Origin: Minisyncoccota bacterium
Lineage (GTDB): Bacteria; Patescibacteriota; Minisyncoccia; Phycocordibacterales; Phycocordibacteraceae
Length of the DNA: 64,000 nt
Direction: 5' to 3'
NCBI GenBank assembly: GCA_036261925.1
Contig: DATAJW010000013.1
Span: 22,544 to 86,543 of the forward strand
Under the pieces are notes generated by a model. That model worked only from the letters and a program-made list of their open reading frames with translations. It was not told the DNA's origin and did no database searches. Made by a program: the position numbers and the translations under genes. Shown in pieces: positions 2,127 to 62,492 of the stretch. Each line of letters begins with the position of its first letter. Position 1 is the first letter of the stretch.

Positions 2127-3277
2127 CGGATGTCCTGCATGCCGAGCGCAGCCCATGTCCCGAGCAACGCGATGGCTATGCCGGTGGATATGAAGAGCGT
2201 GCCATAGCCGGTGGTCGCGAGCAGGATGCTGCCGACCAAGGGCGCGACGAGCGCGCCTGCCGGGCGCATCATGCGTATCACGCTCACGGTGCTCGCGTCG
2301 CGCTCGTCGACCCTGCGGAAGAAGTGCCCCTCGACCATGGCTTCAGTGATGGCCGCCCCGACGCGGGTGAGGAGGAGGATGCCGAAGACGGCCGCGAGCG
2401 GGGTCGCGAGCGTGATGAGCGGCACGAGCGCGAACGCGCCGCCCATGATGAGGAATCCGGCGACGAGCATCTCCTTATCGCCGATGAACCGGTCCGCTAT
2501 CCAGCCGGCAGGGTACTCGAGGAAGACGAAGGGCAGGAGCGCGAACGCGAGAAGCCAGCCGAGATCGCTCCAGGGCATCCCGAGGACCGTATGGAGATAG
2601 AGCGGTATGTAGAGCGGCGCGAGATTGTAGAAGACCTGGAGCATGGCGTGCGCGAAGGTGACCGAACGCAGGTCCTTGTCGTTCATGATGCAGATGCAGG
2701 TCGCGGAAAGCCGCGATATGCGCGGCGGCGCGCCTTCCTGCGGCCGCTCGAACAGGAAGAGCATGATGAACGGGGTGAGCGACAGGCTCGCGGCGAGGAA
2801 GACGCCCCGGTAGTCGCTGCCGTCGCCGAGGATGGCGCCGATGAGGAGCGGCGCGAGGATGACCGCGACGCTGCTCGCGGTCAGGAACGCGGTGCGGATG
2901 CGGCCGGTCGAGCCCTCCTCCCTCACCGTCGCCTCGAGCAGGAGGTCGAGCTGGTAGGCGATGAACGGCGCGGTCGCGCAGACGAGCGCGAGGAGCCCTG
3001 CGGCGAATACGGGAATGGGATTCGCGGCGAGCAGGAGGAGCATGACCGCCTGCAGGAACGCGAGCGCGAGCGCGATGTTCCTCGATCCGAACCTCCTGAC
3101 GAGGCTCGGCATCCAGGGGAAGACCGCGAGGGTCACGACCGCGCCGAGCGAGATGACGAGCCCGGCCGCATCGTCGGACATGAACGTCGCGAGGTACGGT
3201 CCGATGATGTAGATGATGAGGAAGAAATGCCCGCCCGAGAGGAAATTCCCGAACGAGAGCAGGGCGCGCGGCGACAT
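2123..3277 (-). CDS. MFS transporter
   Basis: about 12 predicted TM segments, MFS-like topology, 384 aa. Confidence 0.65.
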   Translation of the reverse strand: MSPRALLSFGNFLSGGHFFLIIYIIGPYLATFMSDDAAGLVISLGAVVTLAVFPWMPSLVRRFGSRNIALALAFLQAVMLLLLAANPIPVFAAGLLALVCATAPFIAYQLDLLLEATVREEGSTGRIRTAFLTASSVAVILAPLLIGAILGDGSDYRGVFLAASLSLTPFIMLFLFERPQEGAPPRISRLSATCICIMNDKDLRSVTFAHAMLQVFYNLAPLYIPLYLHTVLGMPWSDLGWLLAFALLPFVFLEYPAGWIADRFIGDKEMLVAGFLIMGGAFALVPLITLATPLAAVFGILLLTRVGAAITEAMVEGHFFRRVDERDASTVSVIRMMRPAGALVAPLVGSILLATTGYGTLFISTGIAIALLGTWAALGMQDIR

Positions 3278-44303: not shown

Positions 44304-45449
44304 CTATCCAACCACCTTCAGATGCGCGATGAGGGAATCGAGCGGGATATGGGACTCGGTATGGGTGGCGCGCTCGCGGAGGATGACGGAGCGCTCGAGC
44401 GCTTCCTTGCGGCCCATGATGAGGAGATAGGGCGCGTTCGTGATGTCGGCGAGGCGCATCTGCTCGGTCAGGGAGGCGATGCCGATGGACTGGATGAGCG
44501 GAACGCGGGCGCGGCGGAGCTCGTCAGCGATCTTCATGCTCTCGCGCTTGGCCTCGTCGCCGATATGCACGAAGACGAAGCGGGGAGTACCGCGCTGCTT
44601 CACGGCCGGTATCGGCTCGCGGTTCTCGACATTGATGCGTATGACGGCGCCCATGGACGGGACATGGGACTTGAAGAACGTGCGCGCGAAATCGGTGTAG
44701 CGGGAGCCCCAGGCATGGAGCGCATCGTCGCCCTGTATCTCGAAGCAGGTCTCCGCCCAGGACGCGCCACGCGAAAGGAGCCCGGGCGCGAGGTCATACG
44801 GCGTCTCGGTCGCTTCGAGGTACTCGAGGACGCTCTCGAAGTGCTTACGGCTCGATTCTGAAAGATGGTCGGTAGGCGAGGGGAGCTCGTCCGCGTCCTC
44901 GCCCGACGCGAGGAGCTCGGCGGCCTCGAAGACATCCCGCTTGGCGCAGTCGACGCAGTCGGCGGGCAGCGTCGGCCCCTGCTTGCGGAAGAATTGCGTG
45001 AGCTCGCGCGCGAAACGGCTGCGGGTCTCGCGGTCGCCCATGCTGTTGAGGCGCAGGCGCGGCTCGCCCTTGGCGAGGTCCTGCATGAGCGCGCGCACGG
45101 CGCGTATGAGGACCGCATCCGCTATCGCATTCTCGACGCCGAGCACATGGAACTGCACGACGATCTGCTTGGGCGACGGGCGCCCGTAGGCGGCGTTGGT
45201 GTGCCAGAGGAAGAGCGGCTGGAGCGTGGACGGTTCGAGTCCCGCATCGCGTACCTGCTTCAGGAGGCTCGCGACCTCGCGCGCGGCCGGATCGAGCGCC
45301 TCGAGCGCTATCGAATCGGGATACGGGCCCTTCGCGCCCTTGCCGCGGTTGCCGGCAGCCAGTGCCGAGAGCGGCGTGAAGCCATAGTAGGTACCGATAG
45401 CGTGCGCGCGCTTCAGGACGTCGGATGGCTCGTGCGCAAGGGTGCTCAT
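44304..45449 (-). CDS. Histidyl-tRNA synthetase-like class II aaRS paralog (HisRS/HisZ family), catalytic motifs degenerate
   Basis: C-terminal anticodon-binding domain (PRFVFVHIGDEAK...LIMGRKE) and GSRYTDF (motif-3-like) present; the motif-2 FRYERPQ.GRYR arginines are replaced (LWHTNAAYGRPSPKQIVVQF). Confidence 0.55.
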   Translation of the reverse strand: MSTLAHEPSDVLKRAHAIGTYYGFTPLSALAAGNRGKGAKGPYPDSIALEALDPAAREVASLLKQVRDAGLEPSTLQPLFLWHTNAAYGRPSPKQIVVQFHVLGVENAIADAVLIRAVRALMQDLAKGEPRLRLNSMGDRETRSRFARELTQFFRKQGPTLPADCVDCAKRDVFEAAELLASGEDADELPSPTDHLSESSRKHFESVLEYLEATETPYDLAPGLLSRGASWAETCFEIQGDDALHAWGSRYTDFARTFFKSHVPSMGAVIRINVENREPIPAVKQRGTPRFVFVHIGDEAKRESMKIADELRRARVPLIQSIGIASLTEQMRLADITNAPYLLIMGRKEALERSVILRERATHTESHIPLDSLIAHLKVVG

Positions 45450-55849: not shown

Positions 55850-56434
55850 ATGACCCGACTCCATTCGTTCCGCGCGCTTCTCGTCCTCGGCATGCTCGCG
55901 TTCTCCTTCGCGGCGCCTATGCCCGTGGCGTATGCCGCCGACCAATGCAACCCATCGAGCCCGAGCTCATGTCCGAGCGGGCAGCAGTGCAAGAAAGTGA
56001 ACGATGAAGACGCGACATGCGTCGCTATCGAATGCACGCCTGCCTGCAAATCCACGGAAGTCTGCTTCCTCGGCAATACCTGCATTGCGAAGTCGAGCAC
56101 TACCAATCCCGGCGGGACCGAGGGAACTACTAATCCTGGCGGAACCCAGGGAACCGCAAATTCTGGCGCAGGCAGACTCCAGAACCCGCTCAATAATATA
56201 AATAGCATAGACGATCTGCTCGGCGCGGTTCTCGGCGCGGTCGTGCGCATCGGCTCCATCATCCTCGTGCTCGCGCTCGTCTATATCGGCTTCCTCTTCG
56301 TCGTCGCCCAAGGGAACGAGGAAAAGCTCAAGAGCGCTCGGACCGCGCTTCTTTGGACGGTGATTGGCGGTCTCATCCTGCTTGGCGCCACGGCGATAAA
56401 GGAGGTCATAACCGCGACCGTGGACGCGCTATGA
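55850..56434 (+). CDS. Pilin-like two-TM protein paralog 1 (TrbC/VirB2-like core) with N-terminal Cys-rich secreted domain and TNPGGT repeats
   Basis: signal peptide; 10 Cys in about 50 aa; C-terminal core homologous to the four downstream ORFs. Confidence 0.6.
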   Translation: MTRLHSFRALLVLGMLAFSFAAPMPVAYAADQCNPSSPSSCPSGQQCKKVNDEDATCVAIECTPACKSTEVCFLGNTCIAKSSTTNPGGTEGTTNPGGTQGTANSGAGRLQNPLNNINSIDDLLGAVLGAVVRIGSIILVLALVYIGFLFVVAQGNEEKLKSARTALLWTVIGGLILLGATAIKEVITATVDAL

Positions 56435-56901
56435 TGCCGCGTACGTTCATCGCGCTGCTCTTCATCGCTGGCCTGTCCGGCGCGTCCCCGGTTCCTGCGC
56501 TCGCCCAGACCTGCACCCCTGGCTGCGGGTCAGGGACGATATGCGCGTACACCAATCTCGCGGAGACGCAGACGGGATGCATCATCGCCGCCCAGGATGA
56601 CGGAACGGTCGATGAGGTCGTCGTGGAGGCGGCGGGAGGCGGCTCCGGCCGCTCGTTCGCGGAGTTCGTATATGACGTAATCGTACCGCTCTTCAATGAC
56701 GGCATCATCCCGCTCCTGTATGCGCTCGCCTTCCTCTTCTTCCTCATCGGCGTCGTTCGGTACTTCTTCCTCGAGAGCGAGGAGAACCGCGAGAAAGGCA
56801 AGGGCATGATGCTCTGGGGCATCATCGGCCTCGCGGTCATATTCTCGGTCTGGGGGCTGGTGCAGCTCCTCCTCGCCACGTTCTCGCTCGGTAGCGCATA
56901 G
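56431..56901 (+). CDS. Pilin-like two-TM protein paralog 2 with N-terminal Cys-containing domain
   Basis: core IIPLLYALAFLFFLIGVVRYFFLESEENREKGKGMMLWGIIGLAVIFSVWGLVQLL. Confidence 0.6.
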   Translation: MMPRTFIALLFIAGLSGASPVPALAQTCTPGCGSGTICAYTNLAETQTGCIIAAQDDGTVDEVVVEAAGGGSGRSFAEFVYDVIVPLFNDGIIPLLYALAFLFFLIGVVRYFFLESEENREKGKGMMLWGIIGLAVIFSVWGLVQLLLATFSLGSA

Positions 56902-56928
56902 CACTTATTCCCTAATCACCATTCCGTC

Positions 56929-57360
56929 ATGCCTCCTTCGAACCAAGCTCCAAGCACGCTGCAGGGATTCTTCCCCTGGATCATCGCGTTCATCGATACG
57001 TATATCGTGCCGCTCATCTTCGCGCTCGCGTTCGTCGTCTTCCTCTGGGGCGTCTTCCAGTACTTCATCGCCGGAGGCGCCGATGAGGAGAAGCGGGAAA
57101 AAGGAAAGAGATTCGTCGCGTACGGACTGGTCGGTTTCTTCGTGATGGTGTCGGTCTGGGGCCTCGTGAACTTGCTGGTCGGCTCGTTCGGCTTCAATAA
57201 GTCCGCGCCGCCGGTGCCGCGCTTCGGCGCGCCTTCGAGCGCCAATCCTGCGCCGAACACGCCTACCGGCACGTCAGGCATCTCATGCCAGACGGCATTC
57301 GATTGCGGCGGTCTCGCCTGCCTGAACGGCTTCTGCGCATCGAGCAACGGGAACAACTGA
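56929..57360 (+). CDS. Pilin-like two-TM protein paralog 3 with C-terminal Cys-rich tail
   Basis: core IVPLIFALAFVVFLWGVFQYFIAGGADEEKREKGKRFVAYGLVGFFVMVSVWGLVNLL; tail CQTAFDCGGLACLNGFC. Confidence 0.6.
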   Translation: MPPSNQAPSTLQGFFPWIIAFIDTYIVPLIFALAFVVFLWGVFQYFIAGGADEEKREKGKRFVAYGLVGFFVMVSVWGLVNLLVGSFGFNKSAPPVPRFGAPSSANPAPNTPTGTSGISCQTAFDCGGLACLNGFCASSNGNN

Positions 57361-57453
57361 TAGCTGATAGCCGTTTTCCACATGCGGCCAAGGCCTCTAT
57401 TGACGGGCTGCCGTGGCGTTCTATCCTATAGGAGTACTTAGTAATCACTATCT

Positions 57454-57816
57454 ATGAAGAAACTCGGTTATATCGGTGCGGCCCTCGCGCTCCCGTTCCT
57501 CGCATTCGCGCAGACCATCAATGGCCAGAGCGGCCTCGGCGGCCTCGGCCAGAGCCTCATCGCCTTTATCAATACGATCGTCGTGCCGCTCATCTTCGCG
57601 CTCGCGTTCATCGTCTTCATCTGGGGCGTCTTCCAGTACTTCATCGCTGGCGGGCACGACGAGGAGAAGAAGGAGAAGGGCAAGAGCCTCATGCTCTACG
57701 GCCTCATCGGTTTCTTCGTGATGGTATCGGTTTGGGGCCTCGTGAACATCCTCACGGGTACCTTCAATCTCCGCGACACGCCGCCGCCGTACCCTGACGT
57801 ACCGGTCAACAACTAG
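57454..57816 (+). CDS. Pilin-like two-TM protein paralog 4
   Basis: signal peptide plus core nearly identical to paralog 3. Confidence 0.6.
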   Translation: MKKLGYIGAALALPFLAFAQTINGQSGLGGLGQSLIAFINTIVVPLIFALAFIVFIWGVFQYFIAGGHDEEKKEKGKSLMLYGLIGFFVMVSVWGLVNILTGTFNLRDTPPPYPDVPVNN

Positions 57817-57875
57817 GCGCAGTTCTCCACCAGAGGAAGCCGCCCGTTCGGGCGGCTTCTTGCTATGATACGGAT

Positions 57876-58133
57876 ATGGATAAGCTCAATGAGTTCATAA
57901 CGAACGTGGAGCGGGAGATACTCACCCCGATAGTCACCCTCCTCGCCCTGTTCGCGTTCGCGGTCTTCGTCTGGGGCATCGTGCAGTTCATCGCGAACGC
58001 GGGCGATGAGGAGAAACGCAAGACCGGCCAGATGCACATGTTCTGGGGCATCATCGGCCTCGTCATCATATTCGGCGCGAACGCCATAATACGGCTCATG
58101 GCGAATACGGTGGGTGCGGACGTTCCGTTCTAG
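57876..58133 (+). CDS. Pilin-like two-TM protein paralog 5 (core only, 85 aa)
   Basis: core ILTPIVTLLALFAFAVFVWGIVQFIANAGDEEKRKTGQMHMFWGIIGLVIIFGANAII. Confidence 0.55.
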   Translation: MDKLNEFITNVEREILTPIVTLLALFAFAVFVWGIVQFIANAGDEEKRKTGQMHMFWGIIGLVIIFGANAIIRLMANTVGADVPF

Positions 58134-58719: not shown

Positions 58720-59916
58720 CTAGTCCTTGTTGTTGGTGAAGATAGCGGCCGCGTCGACAAGCGGATTGCCGCTTCTGACGATGGTCTCTTTGGCTCGGCC
58801 ACGGTTGATGCGGACAAGCTCAAGCGCGCGCTCCAAGGAGAGCGTTTCTCCTCGGCTGGTGGCGTCGGCAATATATGCCCTCGCCAGCTCGAGCTCGGTA
58901 TCGAAGTCCTTCCTTTCCGCTCGACGCTGCGCGTCTTCGCGGGCGGACAATTCGGCGTCTGCGCCGAGCGCGCTGCTCGGTTCGATGCGGACGACGTTGA
59001 GGCGGGTGATCTGGATGCCCAGGTCGACCACATCCCCGACGCCGTTCTCGCGAACGATGCGCAGGAAGACCTCCATTTCCCGTTGCCGGTTATGCAAGTC
59101 ATCTTTCGGGGCGGCATGGATATACCGCAACGGCTCGTCGATGGCGGGCAGCAGCCTATACTTATCGGGTGCGATTGCGAAATCCTCTTCCGCTATCTTG
59201 CCGTCCGTACGAGGCAGTGTACGCAACTTCGCGTCGCTGACCATCATCAAGAGGCTCGCCGCGAGCGGCGCCTTGAGGAAAACGAATTCCTCCCAGGTAT
59301 AGTCGCTCGCGAACACACGCGTCTCTTCGCCGATGATGTCGCAGAGGATCTTCTTGACCCCCTCCTCGCCGCCGGAGTTGAGATACTTGATGATGCGATC
59401 GGCGTCGACATCCTCGCCGCCGTGCAGGCCATCAGCATCGGGCTCGATGGTAATGGCCACTTCGACGGTGACTGCAGCGCCGGCAGCGGCCGTATCCGAT
59501 CCGGTATTCGCGCGGCATCGGACATCTTCATAGGTGAAGTTCCTGTTCATCCGCTCGACTTTGACCGGATTCACTCCCACCATGAAGGGGAAGTACGGGG
59601 CGAGCAGATGCGTCCCTTCCGGAATGAGGACGCGGATGCGCCTATTCCAGAACGTGAGGATGCCCTTATGCGGCGGATCCTCGGGAACGCGCACGAACCC
59701 GAACGCGATCATCAGCGCACCGATAGCGCCGATAGCCGCGAAGTACCGCGGGCCGACGAGAAGGTAGTAGGTGCCGAGCAGGATGAAGCCGATAGCGCTT
59801 GCCCAAAGGATCGTCGTGATCCTTTGGAGAAATGCACGGTCGACTATTACCGCCACCAGCATCGCCACCTGAATGGCTAGCCAGAGCTTGAGTACCAGAG
59901 GCATAGCGCCCTCCAA
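58720..59916 (-). CDS. SPFH/band-7 (stomatin/prohibitin-like) domain protein
   Basis: N-terminal 2 TM, SPFH core (GILTFWNRRIRVLIPEGTHLLAPYFPFMVGV...), C-terminal coiled coil. Confidence 0.5.
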   Translation of the reverse strand: MEGAMPLVLKLWLAIQVAMLVAVIVDRAFLQRITTILWASAIGFILLGTYYLLVGPRYFAAIGAIGALMIAFGFVRVPEDPPHKGILTFWNRRIRVLIPEGTHLLAPYFPFMVGVNPVKVERMNRNFTYEDVRCRANTGSDTAAAGAAVTVEVAITIEPDADGLHGGEDVDADRIIKYLNSGGEEGVKKILCDIIGEETRVFASDYTWEEFVFLKAPLAASLLMMVSDAKLRTLPRTDGKIAEEDFAIAPDKYRLLPAIDEPLRYIHAAPKDDLHNRQREMEVFLRIVRENGVGDVVDLGIQITRLNVVRIEPSSALGADAELSAREDAQRRAERKDFDTELELARAYIADATSRGETLSLERALELVRINRGRAKETIVRSGNPLVDAAAIFTNNKD

Positions 59917-60036
59917 GATTCGTTTGACCTGTCAAAGGCCGTTCCACCTGCTATAATAGCACAATATATAGTGTTTTGTCAAGGTGCTCCCAGCAATCGA
60001 ATACCGAGGCCAGTGCCGGCTATTTCATGGAAATGT

Positions 60037-60100
60037 ACTGGAGAGAGGACTCGCACCAGCACCCCCGAAGGCCCAACCTACGGATGGAAGACGGGACCAA
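60037..60100 (-). pseudogene. tRNA-Leu-like 3' fragment (T-arm variant plus acceptor CTCCAG), partner of the 5' fragment at 60225-60270
   Basis: ...CCTTCGGGGGTGCTGGTGCGAGTCCTCTCTCCAG parallels the tRNA-Leu 3' end with substitutions. Confidence 0.35.
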
Positions 60101-60138
60101 CCATCTTCCATTCCCGCGGCAATTCGTTATGCACACAG

Positions 60139-60219
60139 TGCCGAGGAGAGGACTCGAACCTCCACCCCCGAAGGGACCTGCTCCTAAGGCAGGCGCGCCT
60201 ACCATTTCGCCACCTCGGC
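60139..60219 (-). tRNA. tRNA-Leu (anticodon TAG), long variable arm
   Basis: reverse complement GCCGAGGTGGCGAAATGGTAGGCGCGCCTGCCTTAGGAGCAGGTCCCTTCGGGGGTGGAGGTTCGAGTCCTCTCCTCGGCA. Confidence 0.75.
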
Positions 60220-60224
60220 ACTCT

Positions 60225-60270
60225 ATGCACAACTCGCGTCTACCATTTCGCCACTCCAGCGTTCCGGTAT
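60225..60270 (-). pseudogene. tRNA-Leu-like 5' fragment (acceptor GCTGGAG plus D-arm TGGCGAAATGGTAGACGC)
   Basis: D-arm identical to tRNA-Leu(TAG) except for 1 nt; acceptor complementary to the 3' fragment at 60037-60060. Confidence 0.35.
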
Positions 60271-60325
60271 CTTATCAGAAAAAGACGAAAGCCGGACGAA
60301 TCCGGCTCCGGTCTTTCACTTTGAT

Positions 60326-60401
60326 TGGTCCGCCTGCCTGGGCTCGAACCAGGGACCATCTCCTTAAGAGGGAGTTGCTCTACCAACTGAGCTACAGGCG
60401 G
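60326..60401 (-). tRNA. tRNA-Lys (anticodon CTT), CCA encoded
   Basis: reverse complement CCGCCTGTAGCTCAGTTGGTAGAGCAACTCCCTCTTAAGGAGATGGTCCCTGGTTCGAGCCCAGGCAGGCGGACCA. Confidence 0.85.
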
Positions 60402-60452
60402 ATGTCCGAAGGACTTTCGGATTCTAGCGTCTTCATGAAAAATAGTAAACAG

Positions 60453-61595
60453 CTATTCGACGACCCGGCGGAGATGCGGCGGGACATGGACGAGCACCTC
60501 GTACGGGATGGTGCCGATACGTTCCGCTATGTTGGCGACCGAGTTCGGATGCTCGGGCGTCCGGCTGATCGCGATGACCCGGTCGCCCTGCGCGACGCCG
60601 CCCGCTCCGGTGATGTCGAGCGTGGTCATGTTCATGGAAACGCGTCCGGCGATGGGGCAGTCCTCCTCCCGGATGCGCATGCTGCCGGCGCTCGAGAGGC
60701 GTCGGTCGATGCCTTCGTAGTAGCCGACCGGGACGGTCGCGATGCGTGACGGCTGCCCGGCGATGAACGTCGCGTTATACCCGACGGCGTCGCCTGCGGG
60801 AATATCCCTGATGCTTGTCACGAGCGAGCGCAGCTCGAGCACCGGCTTCACTGCCGATTTCCCGCCGGGCGCGGTATCGAACCCGTAGAGGCCGATGCCG
60901 ACGCGCGCGACGTTCGCGCGGCATTCGGCGGAGAAACGCACGCCCTTGGTGGCGGCTATGTGCCGGAACTCGAGCGCCGGATAGGCGGCTTCGACGAGCG
61001 CGAGGGTCTCCATCCAGGCGGCGAGCTGCGTGCGGCTGAACGCTTCGTCCTCGCTATCGGCGTCGGCCAGATGGGTGGCGATGCCGACGACCTTCGCATG
61101 CGGACTCTTCTTGAGCGCTTCGAGCGCGCGCGGAAGGTGCGCTCTCGTGATGCCTTGGCGGTGCATGCCGGTATCCACCTTTACGTGAAGCCGGACATCA
61201 TGCGTAAGGAGCGGCAGGAGCTCGGCAAGCTGCTCTCGGTCGGTGAGCGCGAAATCGACGTGCGCCAGCCGCGAGCGCGCCATATCGCGCGGCCGCACGT
61301 AGCCCATGACGACGACGCGCGAGCGTATGCCGGCCTGGCGCAGGCGGTGCGCCTCGTACAAGGAATCCACCATGAAGAACGCTATATCCTCCGTGTCGAG
61401 GAGACGCGCGATCAAGCCGAGGTCGTGGCCGTACGCGTTCGACTTGAGGACGGGCGCTATGCGGACGCCCGGATGCCGCTCCTGGTACATGCGCAGGTTA
61501 TGGAGCAGGTTCGCGCGCGAAATGGATACCTCGACCAAGGGCGCATAGCCCGAAAGCCGGCGCTCTAGCGTACGGAAGCGTTCGAGGATTCTCAT
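60453..61595 (-). CDS. alr: Alanine racemase (start at internal Met)
   Basis: VLKSNAYGHG PLP-Lys motif region, C-terminal beta domain; the ATG abuts the tRNA-Leu(TAA) 3' end. Confidence 0.85.
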   Translation of the reverse strand: MRILERFRTLERRLSGYAPLVEVSISRANLLHNLRMYQERHPGVRIAPVLKSNAYGHDLGLIARLLDTEDIAFFMVDSLYEAHRLRQAGIRSRVVVMGYVRPRDMARSRLAHVDFALTDREQLAELLPLLTHDVRLHVKVDTGMHRQGITRAHLPRALEALKKSPHAKVVGIATHLADADSEDEAFSRTQLAAWMETLALVEAAYPALEFRHIAATKGVRFSAECRANVARVGIGLYGFDTAPGGKSAVKPVLELRSLVTSIRDIPAGDAVGYNATFIAGQPSRIATVPVGYYEGIDRRLSSAGSMRIREEDCPIAGRVSMNMTTLDITGAGGVAQGDRVIAISRTPEHPNSVANIAERIGTIPYEVLVHVPPHLRRVVE

Positions 61596-61707: not shown

Positions 61708-61781
61708 GGAGGCCCGAGCGGGAATCGAACCCGCGCATAACGCTTTTGCAGAGCGCCGTGTTACCGCTTCACCATCGGGCC
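61708..61781 (-). tRNA. tRNA-Cys (anticodon GCA), U73 discriminator
   Basis: reverse complement GGCCCGATGGTGAAGCGGTAACACGGCGCTCTGCAAAAGCGTTATGCGCGGGTTCGATTCCCGCTCGGGCCTCC. Confidence 0.8.
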
Positions 61782-62492
61782 CTTCCTCTCCAATTCCGAA
61801 TCCAAATCCTTCAGTCTAAGCCCTCGGATATTGAAGTACTTCGTAAATATACCGTACTTTCTTTCAAGAGCTAATCCAACGAGTTCCGGCGTTGAATACA
61901 TAAGCTTGAAGAGTCGTATGCTATCGCGTGCGCCGTACCGCAGTTGGTATGTGCCCTTGCTGCTGCCATGAGCAAACAGTCCCTTGCCCGTTACGCCAGC
62001 TTCATGGACAAGACGTTCATGCATGGATGAAAGGAATGCGCGACTCCCAGAGGTGAAGATGCTCAACAGTCGCTTGGGGTTCCCGTTCGGTGCCCGTTCA
62101 ATGCATACGCACCCATCGCCATCGAAATAGCCGAGTACGAATGCGGGGAAGTAGAATAGCGGAATATGCGGCAATACCATCGTGAGTGATTTTGCAGGTG
62201 TCATACCGATTTCAATGAGCGCATCATATAAGGCATGGCTTCCGATTGAAAGACAGTAGGCCAGCTTACGATTCTCCGATCTATCCTCGACGCGTATCGT
62301 ATGCTGCGACTTCATGAGGTCGCGGATTAGAGCGATTCGATCCCTATCAGTGCTCAGCACCCGAACGTATTTGCCCCTGATATTCTGTGAATACTGCATG
62401 TTCCCATCCGCATATAGATATCCCAGCACGTATGCCATGGATACCGACCATGAATCGAAAAATGCTTCGTCTACGGGAGTTTTCTTACCCAT
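61761..62492 (-). CDS. Double-motif LAGLIDADG homing endonuclease, free-standing, in AT-rich island
   Basis: two LAGLIDADG motifs (VLGYLYADGN and VLGYFDGDGCV); GC clearly lower than flanks; 3' end overlaps the tRNA-Cys 5' end by about 20 nt. Confidence 0.75.
   Translation of the reverse strand: MGKKTPVDEAFFDSWSVSMAYVLGYLYADGNMQYSQNIRGKYVRVLSTDRDRIALIRDLMKSQHTIRVEDRSENRKLAYCLSIGSHALYDALIEIGMTPAKSLTMVLPHIPLFYFPAFVLGYFDGDGCVCIERAPNGNPKRLLSIFTSGSRAFLSSMHERLVHEAGVTGKGLFAHGSSKGTYQLRYGARDSIRLFKLMYSTPELVGLALERKYGIFTKYFNIRGLRLKDLDSELERKGPMVKR

Follow-up and report, generated by a model that had tools for sequence, protein, structure and literature searches.

In the 64-kb stretch of DNA analysed here (the window), which comes from a tiny-genome CPR bacterium, an intact tRNA-Leu(TAG) gene on the minus strand is flanked by two pieces of a second tRNA-Leu. 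How did one tRNA gene come to lie inside another, and which of them works? A preliminary description had proposed that a tRNA-Leu gene was split by a second copy, leaving a scar of integration or duplication. The outer pieces are 26 nt from the start (60260-60235) and 37 nt from the end (60072-60036) of the second tRNA-Leu, and both halves of this outer gene bracket the intact gene within 225 nt. The 162 nt between them consist of a 15-nt linker, the 81-nt tRNA-Leu(TAG), and 66 nt of other sequence. The parts of the locus are given below in the order in which they are read, all on the minus strand and in the numbering of the 64-kb window.

60326 to 60401, minus strand: tRNA-Lys(CTT), the upstream neighbour, conserved in relatives and given for context only.
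60309 to 60288, minus strand: terminator-like hairpin after tRNA-Lys(CTT).
60269 to 60277, minus strand: promoter-like extended -10 box TGATAAGAT, 8 nt before the outer 5' piece, a putative promoter.
60235 to 60260, minus strand: outer 5' fragment, tRNA-Leu positions 1-26 (GCTGGAG and the D arm), assigned by homology to the inner gene.
60220 to 60234, minus strand: 15-nt linker AGTTGTGCATAGAGT, the last 14 nt of which form the 5' strand of the clamp helix described below; it holds the first copy of TGTGCATA.
60139 to 60219, minus strand: inner intact tRNA-Leu(TAG), taken as the working gene, found by ARAGORN and Rfam.
60126 to 60139, minus strand: 3' strand of the clamp, ACTGTGTGCATAAC, beginning at discriminator A73 and holding the second copy of TGTGCATA.
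60073 to 60125, minus strand: non-tRNA filler of 53 nt, including an 11-bp hairpin.
60036 to 60072, minus strand: outer 3' fragment, with the variable arm, a degenerate T arm, and acceptor strand CTCCAGT plus A73.
59953 to 59982, minus strand: promoter-like TTGACA-18-TATTAT (11 of 12 matches) of the downstream 394-aa gene, the downstream limit of the locus.

The same arrangement was found in L081, an independent Logan assembly, with two differences over 560 nt. Because the two assemblies agree, the arrangement is real DNA and not an assembly artefact or chimera. No fragments were found when we searched around the other 10 tRNAs in the window. The open reading frames of at least 50 aa across the locus all run through the tRNA sequences themselves.

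The inner gene is an ordinary tRNA gene. ARAGORN called a single tRNA-Leu(TAG) at 60219-60139, and the Rfam model RF00005 matched it with 57.9 bits against a cutoff of 29 (E=7e-12), a score above the curated threshold that identifies it as a canonical bacterial type II tRNA cloverleaf. Both tools thus bear out the intact tRNA-Leu(TAG) that had been described at this place. CCA is not encoded in the gene. With the tRNA-Leu(TAG) that the relatives L086, L087, and L089 have at this locus, it shares 89-90% identity, which argues that the inner tRNA is native to its own lineage.

The outer pieces were compared with the inner gene by Smith-Waterman alignment against shuffled sequences. The 5' piece, GCTGGAGTGGCGAAATGGTAGACGCG (60260-60235), is identical to inner positions 6-26 at 19 of 20 sites, and the 3' piece, GCCTTCGGGGGTGCTGGTGCGAGTCCTCTCTCCAGTA (60072-60036), is identical to inner positions 45-74 at 26 of 29 (p<5e-4 for each), as expected from the earlier view of the fragments as near-copies of the inner gene. 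Their acceptor halves, GCTGGAG and CTCCAGT, pair at all seven positions (six Watson-Crick pairs and G1.T72), and the complementarity claimed for the flanking halves therefore stands; the 5' fragment is also present as described, except that it starts at 60260 and not at 60259. The outer gene, however, has no anticodon arm, positions 27-44 being absent, and in its T arm (GCTGG TGCGAGT CCTCT) the stem has two mismatches and U55 is replaced by G. Neither ARAGORN, including its intron mode, nor Rfam at E<=10 called a second tRNA in 59800-60500. The one exception was a weak 'Pro(tgg)' call at 60111-60035, which appeared only at the loosest ARAGORN pseudogene setting. With significant partial homology and essential elements missing, the outer gene is a tRNA pseudogene or fragment, and judged from its sequence (no anticodon arm, a broken T arm, no tRNA call) it looks dead. 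The sole substitution between the two strains over the 560 nt, a single observation, is G18 to A at 60244, an invariant site of the outer D loop. Compared with the acceptor strands of relatives (GCCGGGG/CCCCGGC), the outer stem carries two changes that preserve pairing, C3-G70 to T3-A70 and G6-C67 to A6-T67. Because both changes are compensatory, the outer stem was once selected to pair; such selection could predate the disruption, and could also mean a present role.

The flanks of the inner gene are mutually complementary. A 14-nt inverted repeat, GTTGTGCATAGAGT and ACTGTGTGCATAAC, extends the inner acceptor stem, and TGTGCATA is its core. Thirteen of the 14 positions of this clamp pair in register with the acceptor stem, forming a continuous helix with one G-G mismatch, whereas 42 other tRNAs score 2-8 of 14. 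In minimum free energy folds the inner cloverleaf is retained on top of the clamp helix, and the composite RNA folds better than shuffled sequences (z=-3.4). TGTGCATA occurs exactly twice on both strands of the 64-kb window, at 60231-60224 and 60135-60128, where about 0.42 occurrences are expected. The direct repeat noted earlier is therefore present, with its two copies around the inner tRNA, but it is really part of the inverted repeat of leader and trailer. We take TGTGCATA to belong to a leader/trailer helix and not to be a target-site duplication.

The rest of the inserted sequence is less tRNA-like. The linker AGTTGTGCATAGAGT has no tRNA similarity (p=0.95). The filler contains an 11-bp hairpin with arms 60111-60101 and 60094-60084; it is unique in the window, and a search of the 64 kb for other copies of the hairpin or of TGTGCATA found none. 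Local alignment of the filler to tRNA was not significant (p~0.5). Its last 49 nt, 60121-60073, start with GCCGCGG, and in global alignment they match the 5' half of the inner gene with weak significance (p=0.002-0.01), so this segment may be a very degenerate tRNA 5' half. Two similarities elsewhere were discarded: candidate remnants of a tRNA 3' end further downstream (CGGCACTG at 60018-60011, and CCTCGG) were not significant (p=0.67), and a T-arm-like 14-mer at 45232-45245, which is GC-rich and has no tRNA context, was taken as a chance match.

We next turn to the corresponding locus of relatives among the Paceibacterota. The gene order IF2, RbfA, tRNA-Cys, tRNA-Leu(TAA), Alr, tRNA-Lys, a site X, and Band_7 is common to L086, L087/L088, L089, and L091, and in all of them site X is one uninterrupted tRNA-Leu(TAG). 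Their Alr proteins (L086, L087, L088, L089, L091) are 63-66% identical to that of the window. The distance from tRNA-Lys to the Band_7 gene is 340-358 nt in relatives versus 548 nt here. The outer 5' piece aligns directly behind a TGnTAAGAT box, as does the single gene of relatives: the counterpart of TGATAAGAT in the alignment is TGCTAAGAT, found some 8-11 nt ahead of the lone tRNA-Leu(TAG) of L087, L089, and L091, and L086 has TGCTAGACT in place of TGCTAAGAT. On the other side, relatives have TTGACTTTTTGTCAA at 10-25 nt past their tRNA-Leu, the counterpart of the downstream promoter-like site. The synteny and the alignment behind the box place the outer pieces in the position of the ancestral gene. 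A simple tandem pair of Leu tRNAs, or a normal second tRNA overlooked at first, would have spoken against a split gene; the relatives have a single gene instead, and the scanning tools (ARAGORN in intron and pseudogene modes, and Rfam) called no normal second tRNA. The orthologous loci thus support the view of a tRNA-Leu split by a second copy.

The relatives closest by Alr, L090 (81%) and L085 (70%), have contigs that end inside tRNA-Lys, so the event can neither be dated nor its steps followed. An alanine racemase search of genome contigs returned no close relative, the best identity being 40%. Three contigs with homologues of the downstream gene (L082-L084) begin 33-126 nt upstream of that gene; L083 alone among them includes the 3' end of a normal tRNA-Leu.

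These observations are best explained by duplication or insertion: the outer gene is probably a set of decaying remnants and the inner gene the working tRNA. In this course of events the resident single tRNA-Leu(TAG) would have lost its anticodon arm (27-44), and a 162-nt segment with a complete tRNA-Leu(TAG) would have taken that place. Judged by sequence, the inner gene would be the working tRNA, and the outer halves would have no decoding function. Transcription would presumably still start from the old TGATAAGAT box, with all parts on one transcript. The dead 5' half plus the linker (about 41 nt) would then form a 5' leader and the remainder a 3' trailer, and pairing of leader and trailer over 14 nt would extend the inner acceptor stem to a helix of about 21 bp. 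The 5' end would be made by RNase P cleavage at G1, and the 3' end by an endonuclease or exonuclease together with the CCA-adding enzyme. Candidates for the origin of the insert are a paralogous copy inserted into the anticodon arm, or a local tandem duplication followed by deletions.

A strict pattern scan of metagenomes detected a second nested case, in the Saccharibacteria-like contigs L092/L093/L094 of a distant CPR lineage, apparently independent of the case in the window. In L092 the anticodon loop of one tRNA-Leu encloses a tRNA-Leu(TAG); the two genes clearly belong to different tRNA-Leu species, and the outer gene has kept an intact anticodon stem on either side of the insert. In both cases the outer acceptor stem is closed at seven of seven positions, and the linker from G26 to the inner G1 is exactly 15 nt. 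The clamp helix of L092 has 10 of 14 pairs, its composite RNA folds with z=-3.6 versus shuffles, and its outer T arm is damaged (TTTAAGT, with stem mismatches). The material between the clamp and the outer 3' part has neither sequence, nor length, nor position in common between the two: here it is 66 nt that precede the variable arm, and in L092 77 nt that follow it. A duplicated inner 3' end within this 77-nt second insert was not significant (p=0.27). The inner tRNAs of the two cases are 78% identical. A relative of the L092 case by RsmD (71%; L096/L097) ends 29 nt past RsmD and, of a tRNA on the other strand, includes the 3' end only. Two strict patterns gave no matches in viral contigs, and all that two relaxed ones returned was coding noise of high GC content, without a tRNA at any match.

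The same layout and clamp in L092/L093/L094 fit a one-off accident less easily. We nevertheless regard the nested locus as most likely an evolutionary scar, and consider it unlikely that nested tRNA, clamp, and closed outer stem together make up a recurrent, undescribed CPR feature, be it an in-situ replacement process, a selected precursor, or a leucine-accepting outer shell.

The scar may also have had another origin, a decayed tandem triplication of leader plus tRNA, in which copy 1 lost 27-76, copy 2 stayed intact, and copy 3 became degenerate at its 5' part; this would be a variant of the origin with the same end product and function, and we give it a minor share of the probability. The spacing suits it, since the 100 nt from the start of copy 2 to GCCGCGG equal an 81-nt tRNA plus a 19-nt spacer, as do the 6 of 7 matches of GCCGCGG to GCCGAGG at the start of the 49 nt before the 3' fragment, whose global alignment was weakly significant as given above, the presence of TGTGCATA in both spacers, and 9 of 18 matches in register between the 18 nt before GCCGCGG and the 18 nt before the outer 5' piece. 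However, the local alignment of the middle region to tRNA is not significant, the identity within the supposed copy 3 rises abruptly, from about 60% for the 5' part to 90% for the 3' part, and drift is unlikely to have turned a D arm and an anticodon arm into a perfect 11-bp hairpin. GCCGCGG does not pair with CTCCAGT, whereas the strand of copy 1 pairs with it at seven of seven positions through two mutually complementary changes, an outcome that separate copies decaying independently would not yield. L092, moreover, is true nesting, with its different tRNA-Leu species and intact outer anticodon stem. An active agent instead of local duplication, namely a small element, mobile or integrative, that has the anticodon arm of tRNA-Leu genes as its target and a replacement tRNA as its cargo, with the 14-nt flanks as terminal repeats and TGTGCATA as target-site duplication, seems very improbable. 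It would account for the inverted flanks with an 8-nt direct repeat and for the same type of target, directly after G26 of tRNA-Leu, in two lineages, and integration into tRNA genes that leaves fragments is well known (PMC9897764, PMC3293823). Of the terminal inverted repeats and target-site duplication that would mark a MITE or IS, 14-nt inverted flanks and 8-nt direct repeats exist here, but the direct repeats lie inside the inverted flanks, and removal of the segment does not recreate the target. Taking out one repeat with the tRNA restores no tRNA. Judged by the spacing and ORF layout, there is no recombinase and no room for one in 162 nt; nor do the 15 nt and 66 nt that separate the fragments from the intact gene make an integrase att-site scar, which classically is one fragment (3' or 5') at the far end of the element and not both halves. 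The hairpin and TGTGCATA have no further copy within 64 kb, and there were no matches in viral contigs. Since the inner tRNA belongs by sequence to its own lineage (89-90% to relatives versus 78% to the inner tRNA of L092), no shared cassette has moved between the two lineages.

Could the outer gene still give rise to a functional RNA? If it were an intron-containing, split, or permuted tRNA, it would be spliced to a second functional tRNA, as its complementary acceptor strands and normal D arm might suggest and as group I introns documented in the anticodon loops of Patescibacteria tRNA genes (PMC13011429) would allow. The joined halves cannot rebuild an anticodon stem-loop, however, the outer T arm is broken, and the flanking helix is continuous with 13 of 14 pairs and not a bulge-helix-bulge. 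ARAGORN with introns of up to 300 nt found no outer tRNA, Rfam at E<=10 found neither RF00028 nor any other family in 59800-60500 but tRNA alone, and half of the 162-nt insert is tRNA, the remainder being too short for a ribozyme core. The permuted or split tRNA that had been raised as a more speculative reading is thus not supported, and we consider this whole class of explanation extremely improbable. A tmRNA or other tRNA-like RNA was discarded separately, with 0 genes in the tmRNA mode of ARAGORN and tRNA only in Rfam. A selected precursor design is improbable too, if less far-fetched: the outer acceptor and the clamp would fold the precursor so as to prevent mispairing of the near-identical outer D and T arms with the inner tRNA or offer an RNase III-type entry site, and in a stronger form the outer shell would be a functional leucine-accepting, tRNA-like RNA without anticodon. 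Bacterial LeuRS does not read the anticodon, which counts for such a shell. Two apparently independent cases with a 7/7 outer stem, a 15-nt linker, and a clamp far above background, the two compensatory changes in the outer acceptor stem, and the better folding of both composite RNAs than of shuffles all argue in the same direction. On the other hand, close relatives do without nesting, both cases have a damaged outer T arm (U55=G here, TTTAAGT and mismatches in L092), the outer G18 varies between strains by one SNP, and the material from clamp to outer 3' part is unlike in the two. There are, moreover, only two cases, each represented by near-identical strains only, too few for covariation to be judged.

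CPR bacteria have tiny genomes, in which most tRNA species are presumably single-copy. Here a presumably single-copy tRNA gene has apparently been swapped for a copy inside its own wreck, with the old putative promoter kept. If the locus is a scar only, it is a clear bacterial example of how tRNA genes turn over through duplication and decay. It is also a warning for annotation, as gene callers, and possibly assemblers, can be misled by homologous half-genes that surround a tRNA. To our knowledge, group I introns are the only disruption of bacterial tRNA genes established so far; if the recurrence reflects a mechanism or a selected RNA design, the locus would represent a new type of disrupted tRNA gene for bacteria and a natural instance in which one tRNA serves as the scaffold that presents another.

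Leader and trailer stems that are cut by RNase III are familiar from bacterial rRNA operons, where they serve 16S and 23S rRNA. As in those stems, the 5' and 3' flanks here pair to prolong the terminal stem of the mature RNA into a long helix; unlike there, such stems are not known as a regular feature of bacterial tRNA genes, and a role of RNase III here would be hypothetical. Partial tRNA genes beside intact ones, left by integrated elements, are known from prokaryotes (van der Gulik et al., 2023, PMC9897764; Sugahara et al., 2012, PMC3293823). The present locus resembles them in that truncated dead copies adjoin a functional one and that tools miss them or score them low. They are usually a 3' fragment at the far end of a kilobase-sized, recombinase-bearing element, whereas here both halves bracket the intact gene, no element lies between the halves, and the junctions are at the base of the anticodon arm.

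Group I introns interrupt tRNA genes in Patescibacteria (Nakagawa et al., 2026, PMC13011429), and the phylum, the interruption in the anticodon region, and the failure of annotation tools are the same as here, but our locus has no ribozyme, its exons cannot be joined, and the interrupting sequence is itself a tRNA gene. The disrupted tRNA genes of archaea and algae, which are split, permuted, or carry BHB introns (Chan et al., 2011, PMC3218864; Soma, 2014, PMC3978253), likewise have separated halves with complementary flanks that form a helix beside the acceptor stem. Unlike them, the present case has a bacterial host and no BHB, its helix flanks a complete tRNA, and its outer gene is without an anticodon arm. 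Tandem duplication and random loss of mitochondrial tRNAs (e.g., PMC4223735) is similar in that a tRNA is duplicated locally, redundant copies decay, and remnants lie around the survivor. In that organellar process the remnants lie side by side, whereas here the complementary halves of one gene enclose the survivor.

On the minus strand of the window, an intact tRNA-Leu(TAG) gene (inner gene) lies between two pieces of a second tRNA-Leu gene (outer gene). The features are, in order:

stop at 60453, minus: 3' end of the alanine racemase (Alr) gene
60401-60326, minus: tRNA-Lys(CTT) with a promoter-like site (ARAGORN, Rfam)
60309-60288, minus: terminator-like hairpin
60277-60269, minus: promoter-like box, TGATAAGAT
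60260-60235, minus: outer 5' fragment, tRNA-Leu positions 1-26, GCTGGAG TG GCGAAATGGTAGACGC G
60234-60220, minus: linker, 15 nt
60219-60139, minus: inner intact tRNA-Leu(TAG) (ARAGORN, Rfam)
60138-60073, minus: 66 nt of other sequence containing an 11-bp hairpin
60072-60036, minus: outer 3' fragment, 37 nt, tRNA-Leu variable arm, T arm and 3' acceptor strand
53 nt beyond the outer 3' fragment, minus: promoter-like site of a 394-aa gene

ARAGORN and Rfam called only tRNA-Lys and the inner tRNA-Leu at this locus, and ARAGORN with intron, pseudogene and tmRNA options added no gene there except a weak 'Pro' at the loosest setting; the scanners thus found no normal second tRNA that might have been misfolded by eye. 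The outer 5' and 3' fragments matched the inner gene at 19/20 and 26/29 positions, respectively (each p<5e-4 against shuffles), whereas local alignment of the linker and the 66-nt stretch to the inner gene gave no match. The outer acceptor strands, GCTGGAG and CTCCAGT, paired at all seven positions, and TGTGCATA occurred only twice in the 64-kb window, once on each flank of the inner gene. These results confirmed the preliminary description of an intact tRNA-Leu(TAG) bracketed by halves of another and flanked by a direct repeat. An independent Logan assembly of the locus (L081, run SRR12773038) had the same arrangement, differing by one indel after tRNA-Lys and by one substitution, the only one over 560 nt (window 60244, L081 ~2660; G18 to A in the D loop of the outer 5' fragment). 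A chimeric assembly seems unlikely, because the repeats are just 20-29 nt long and imperfect.

The window belongs to a Candidatus Paceibacterota MAG, as its Alr protein matches an NCBI entry under that name at 100% identity. Four relatives with 63-66% identical Alr share the gene order IF2, RbfA, tRNA-Cys, tRNA-Leu(TAA), Alr, tRNA-Lys(CTT), X, Band_7-type gene, small protein and T4SS-pilin genes. In all four, X is a single uninterrupted tRNA-Leu(TAG), GCCGGGG...CCCCGGCA, located ~8-11 nt behind TGCTAAGAT (in L086, behind TGCTAGACT) and followed after 10-25 nt by promoter-like TTGACTTTTTGTCAA; a fifth relative (L083) has a normal tRNA-Leu 3' end 25 nt ahead of TTGACTTTTTGTCAA. None of the four has the simple tandem Leu pair that would have pointed to ordinary divergence. 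The Alr-to-Band_7 spacer is 548 nt in the window vs 340-358 nt in the four relatives, and multiple alignment placed the outer 5' fragment directly behind the conserved box, at the start position of the ancestral gene. Because the relatives hold a single gene there and the fragment aligns behind this box, we take the outer halves to be the ends of the ancestral gene, with the extra sequence replacing its anticodon arm. The original main reading, a tRNA gene split by a second tRNA-Leu copy and left as a scar, therefore holds.

Contigs of the closest relatives (Alr 81% and 70% identical) end within tRNA-Lys. Seven independent short-read contigs of relatives (L082, L083, L084, L085, L090, L096, L097) end in or beside the tRNA-Lys/tRNA-Leu cluster or its Saccharibacteria counterpart, so intermediate states are out of view; strain heterogeneity or repeat-induced breaks may cause these ends.

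The surrounding region has other features. The likeliest Alr ATG (61595-61593) overlaps the final base of tRNA-Leu(TAA) (61682-61595) at 61595, and a longer GTG-started Alr ORF would traverse that entire tRNA. A free-standing LAGLIDADG-type ORF (61764-62492, minus; Pfam LAGLIDADG_3, 33.6 bits) reaches at its 3' end into the beginning of tRNA-Cys (61781-61708); it has the appearance of a mobile homing-endonuclease gene within the tRNA cluster. The same spot holds a 275-aa LAGLIDADG gene in L086 and, in L087 and L088, an unrelated 177-aa ORF between tRNA-Cys and tRNA-Leu(TAA); no gene was called there in L085 and L089. Five small paralogous membrane proteins are encoded in a row at 55850-58133 (plus), four of them sharing ...FQYFIAGG..EEK.EKGK...; their counterparts in the relatives have Pfam T4SS_pilin matches.

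Both copies belong to the window lineage, because they share a D loop (AAATGGTAG; AAATTGGTAG in relatives) and a variable arm (CCTTCGGGGGTG) that differ from those of distant relatives. Three pairs distinguish the acceptor stems (GCCGGGG/CCCCGGC in relatives, GCCGAGG/CCTCGGC in the inner gene, GCTGGAG/CTCCAGT in the outer gene), and pairing is retained at every one. Two complementary changes in the outer halves imply that these halves once formed one stem under selection, which favours true nesting, with a paralogue set into a gene that used to work, rather than tandem copies that decayed independently. Tandem duplication may still have had a part: the 49 nt preceding the outer 3' fragment start with GCCGCGG, exactly 100 nt after the inner start, and their global alignment to the tRNA 5' half is somewhat above chance (p=0.002-0.01), which together suggest such a role.

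The inner gene, a type II tRNA of normal form with A73, is 89-90% identical to the relatives' tRNA-Leu(TAG), about the same as the relatives among themselves. The outer gene is without an anticodon arm, two pairs are mismatched in its T stem (GCTGG/CCTCT), U55 is replaced by G in its T loop (TGCGAGT), and the window/L081 substitution falls on its invariant G18. From these features, we conclude that tRNA-Leu(TAG) function probably resides in the inner gene and that the outer one is a wreck. Transcription would likely start at the old box, because no promoter-like site of the inner gene's own was recognised and this box is 8 nt upstream of the outer 5' fragment; the transcript would then carry the dead 5' half as a ~41-nt leader. 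CCA is not encoded at the inner gene (...GGCA CTG), and release of the tRNA would involve RNase P, a 3' nuclease and the CCA-adding enzyme.

The preliminary description overlooked an inverted repeat (GTTGTGCATAGAGT before inner G1, ACTGTGTGCATAAC from the discriminator onward) that has the two TGTGCATA copies at its core and prolongs the inner acceptor stem. Its arms pair at 13/14 positions in exact register with that stem, giving a ~21-bp helix (clamp helix), vs 2-8/14 for ungapped leader/trailer pairing in 42 other tRNAs. The minimum-free-energy fold of the whole unit placed the inner cloverleaf atop the clamp helix with the outer acceptor stem closed (-106 kcal/mol, z=-3.4).

A single scan of JGI metagenome contigs used a strict pattern of 27 specified bases: a tRNA-Leu D arm up to position 25, a gap of 10-25 nt and the start of a tRNA-Leu. 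This pattern could match exclusively tRNA-Leu inside tRNA-Leu and demanded no downstream feature of the unit found. The single match was L092; L093 and L094, both ENA assemblies of that species, agree with it at all but one base. L092 RsmD neighbours are annotated as Candidatus Saccharibacteria, a CPR class other than the window's. The unit reads:

L092 897-637, minus (L093 ~2780-3040; L094 ~1185-1445): whole unit
5' part: TAAAAT (promoter-like); GGGCGAG TG GCGGAATTGGTAGACGC G; TCCCT; CTCTATTTGT
L092 856-772, minus: inner intact tRNA-Leu(TAG) with CCA
after the inner tRNA: AAAGGTG; AGGGA; T GGCGCAAGGGTGC (variable arm); 77 nt of hairpins
3' end: ACGGG TTTAAGT CCTTT; CTCGCCC A CCA

The L092 outer gene is clearly a tRNA-Leu species different from the inner one. 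The inner tRNA sits in the outer anticodon loop, with the outer anticodon stem (TCCCT/AGGGA) intact around it. The outer D and variable arms are intact, the T arm is degenerate and preceded by the 77-nt insert, and the acceptor stem (GGGCGAG/CTCGCCC) is perfect, 7/7 plus ACCA; chance alone would very rarely place an exact 5'-strand complement followed by ACCA inside 250 nt (~6e-5 by our estimate). The linker from G26 to inner G1 is exactly 15 nt in both L092 and the window, the L092 inner flanks pair at 10/14 positions ungapped, well over background, and the unit folds with z=-3.6. Since the two inner tRNAs share just 78% identity and are each similar to the tRNAs of their own lineage, we read the cases as independent events rather than a single travelling cassette.

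On the opposite strand to the L092 unit, an 86-aa ORF without a Pfam hit is called as a putative gene (L092 421-681, plus; L093 2997-3257); over its last ~13 codons it overlaps the outer 3' piece made of T arm and acceptor strand. In L096, a contig of a relative with 71% identical RsmD, a tRNA 3' end, ...GGAGGTTCGAGTCCTCTCTCACCCACCA (3031-3069), begins on the opposite strand at the RsmD stop codon, and the contig ends inside that tRNA. Given the similarity of its acceptor strand to that of the L092 outer gene, this tRNA may correspond to the latter in intact form.

The window locus is best described as an apparently working tRNA-Leu(TAG) nested within what is left of this site's ancestral gene. 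The outer shell is probably a non-functional scar that now serves merely as leader and trailer. It is improbable that the nesting reflects a specific mechanism of replacement or a precursor layout under selection; three observations keep this reading alive: nesting recurs in another CPR class, both cases have a clamp helix, and the outer stem shows compensatory changes. No account of one bacterial tRNA gene nested in another turned up in full-text searches of a limited literature set. A MITE seems unlikely, since the hairpin and TGTGCATA were found nowhere else in the window and deleting the segment fails to restore the target. Patescibacteria tRNA genes can carry group I introns in their anticodon loops (Nakagawa et al. 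2026, PMC13011429); unlike these, the window locus has no ribozyme (Rfam) and its outer exons cannot form a tRNA, which makes such an intron very unlikely. The speculation about a split or permuted tRNA was not borne out for the latter reason too, and because the locus has no bulge-helix-bulge motif, in contrast to archaeal split, permuted and BHB-intron genes. An integrase scar is a single fragment left at the distal end of a recombinase-carrying element (PMC9897764, PMC3293823), whereas at the window locus, with no element present, both halves closely flank the gene.
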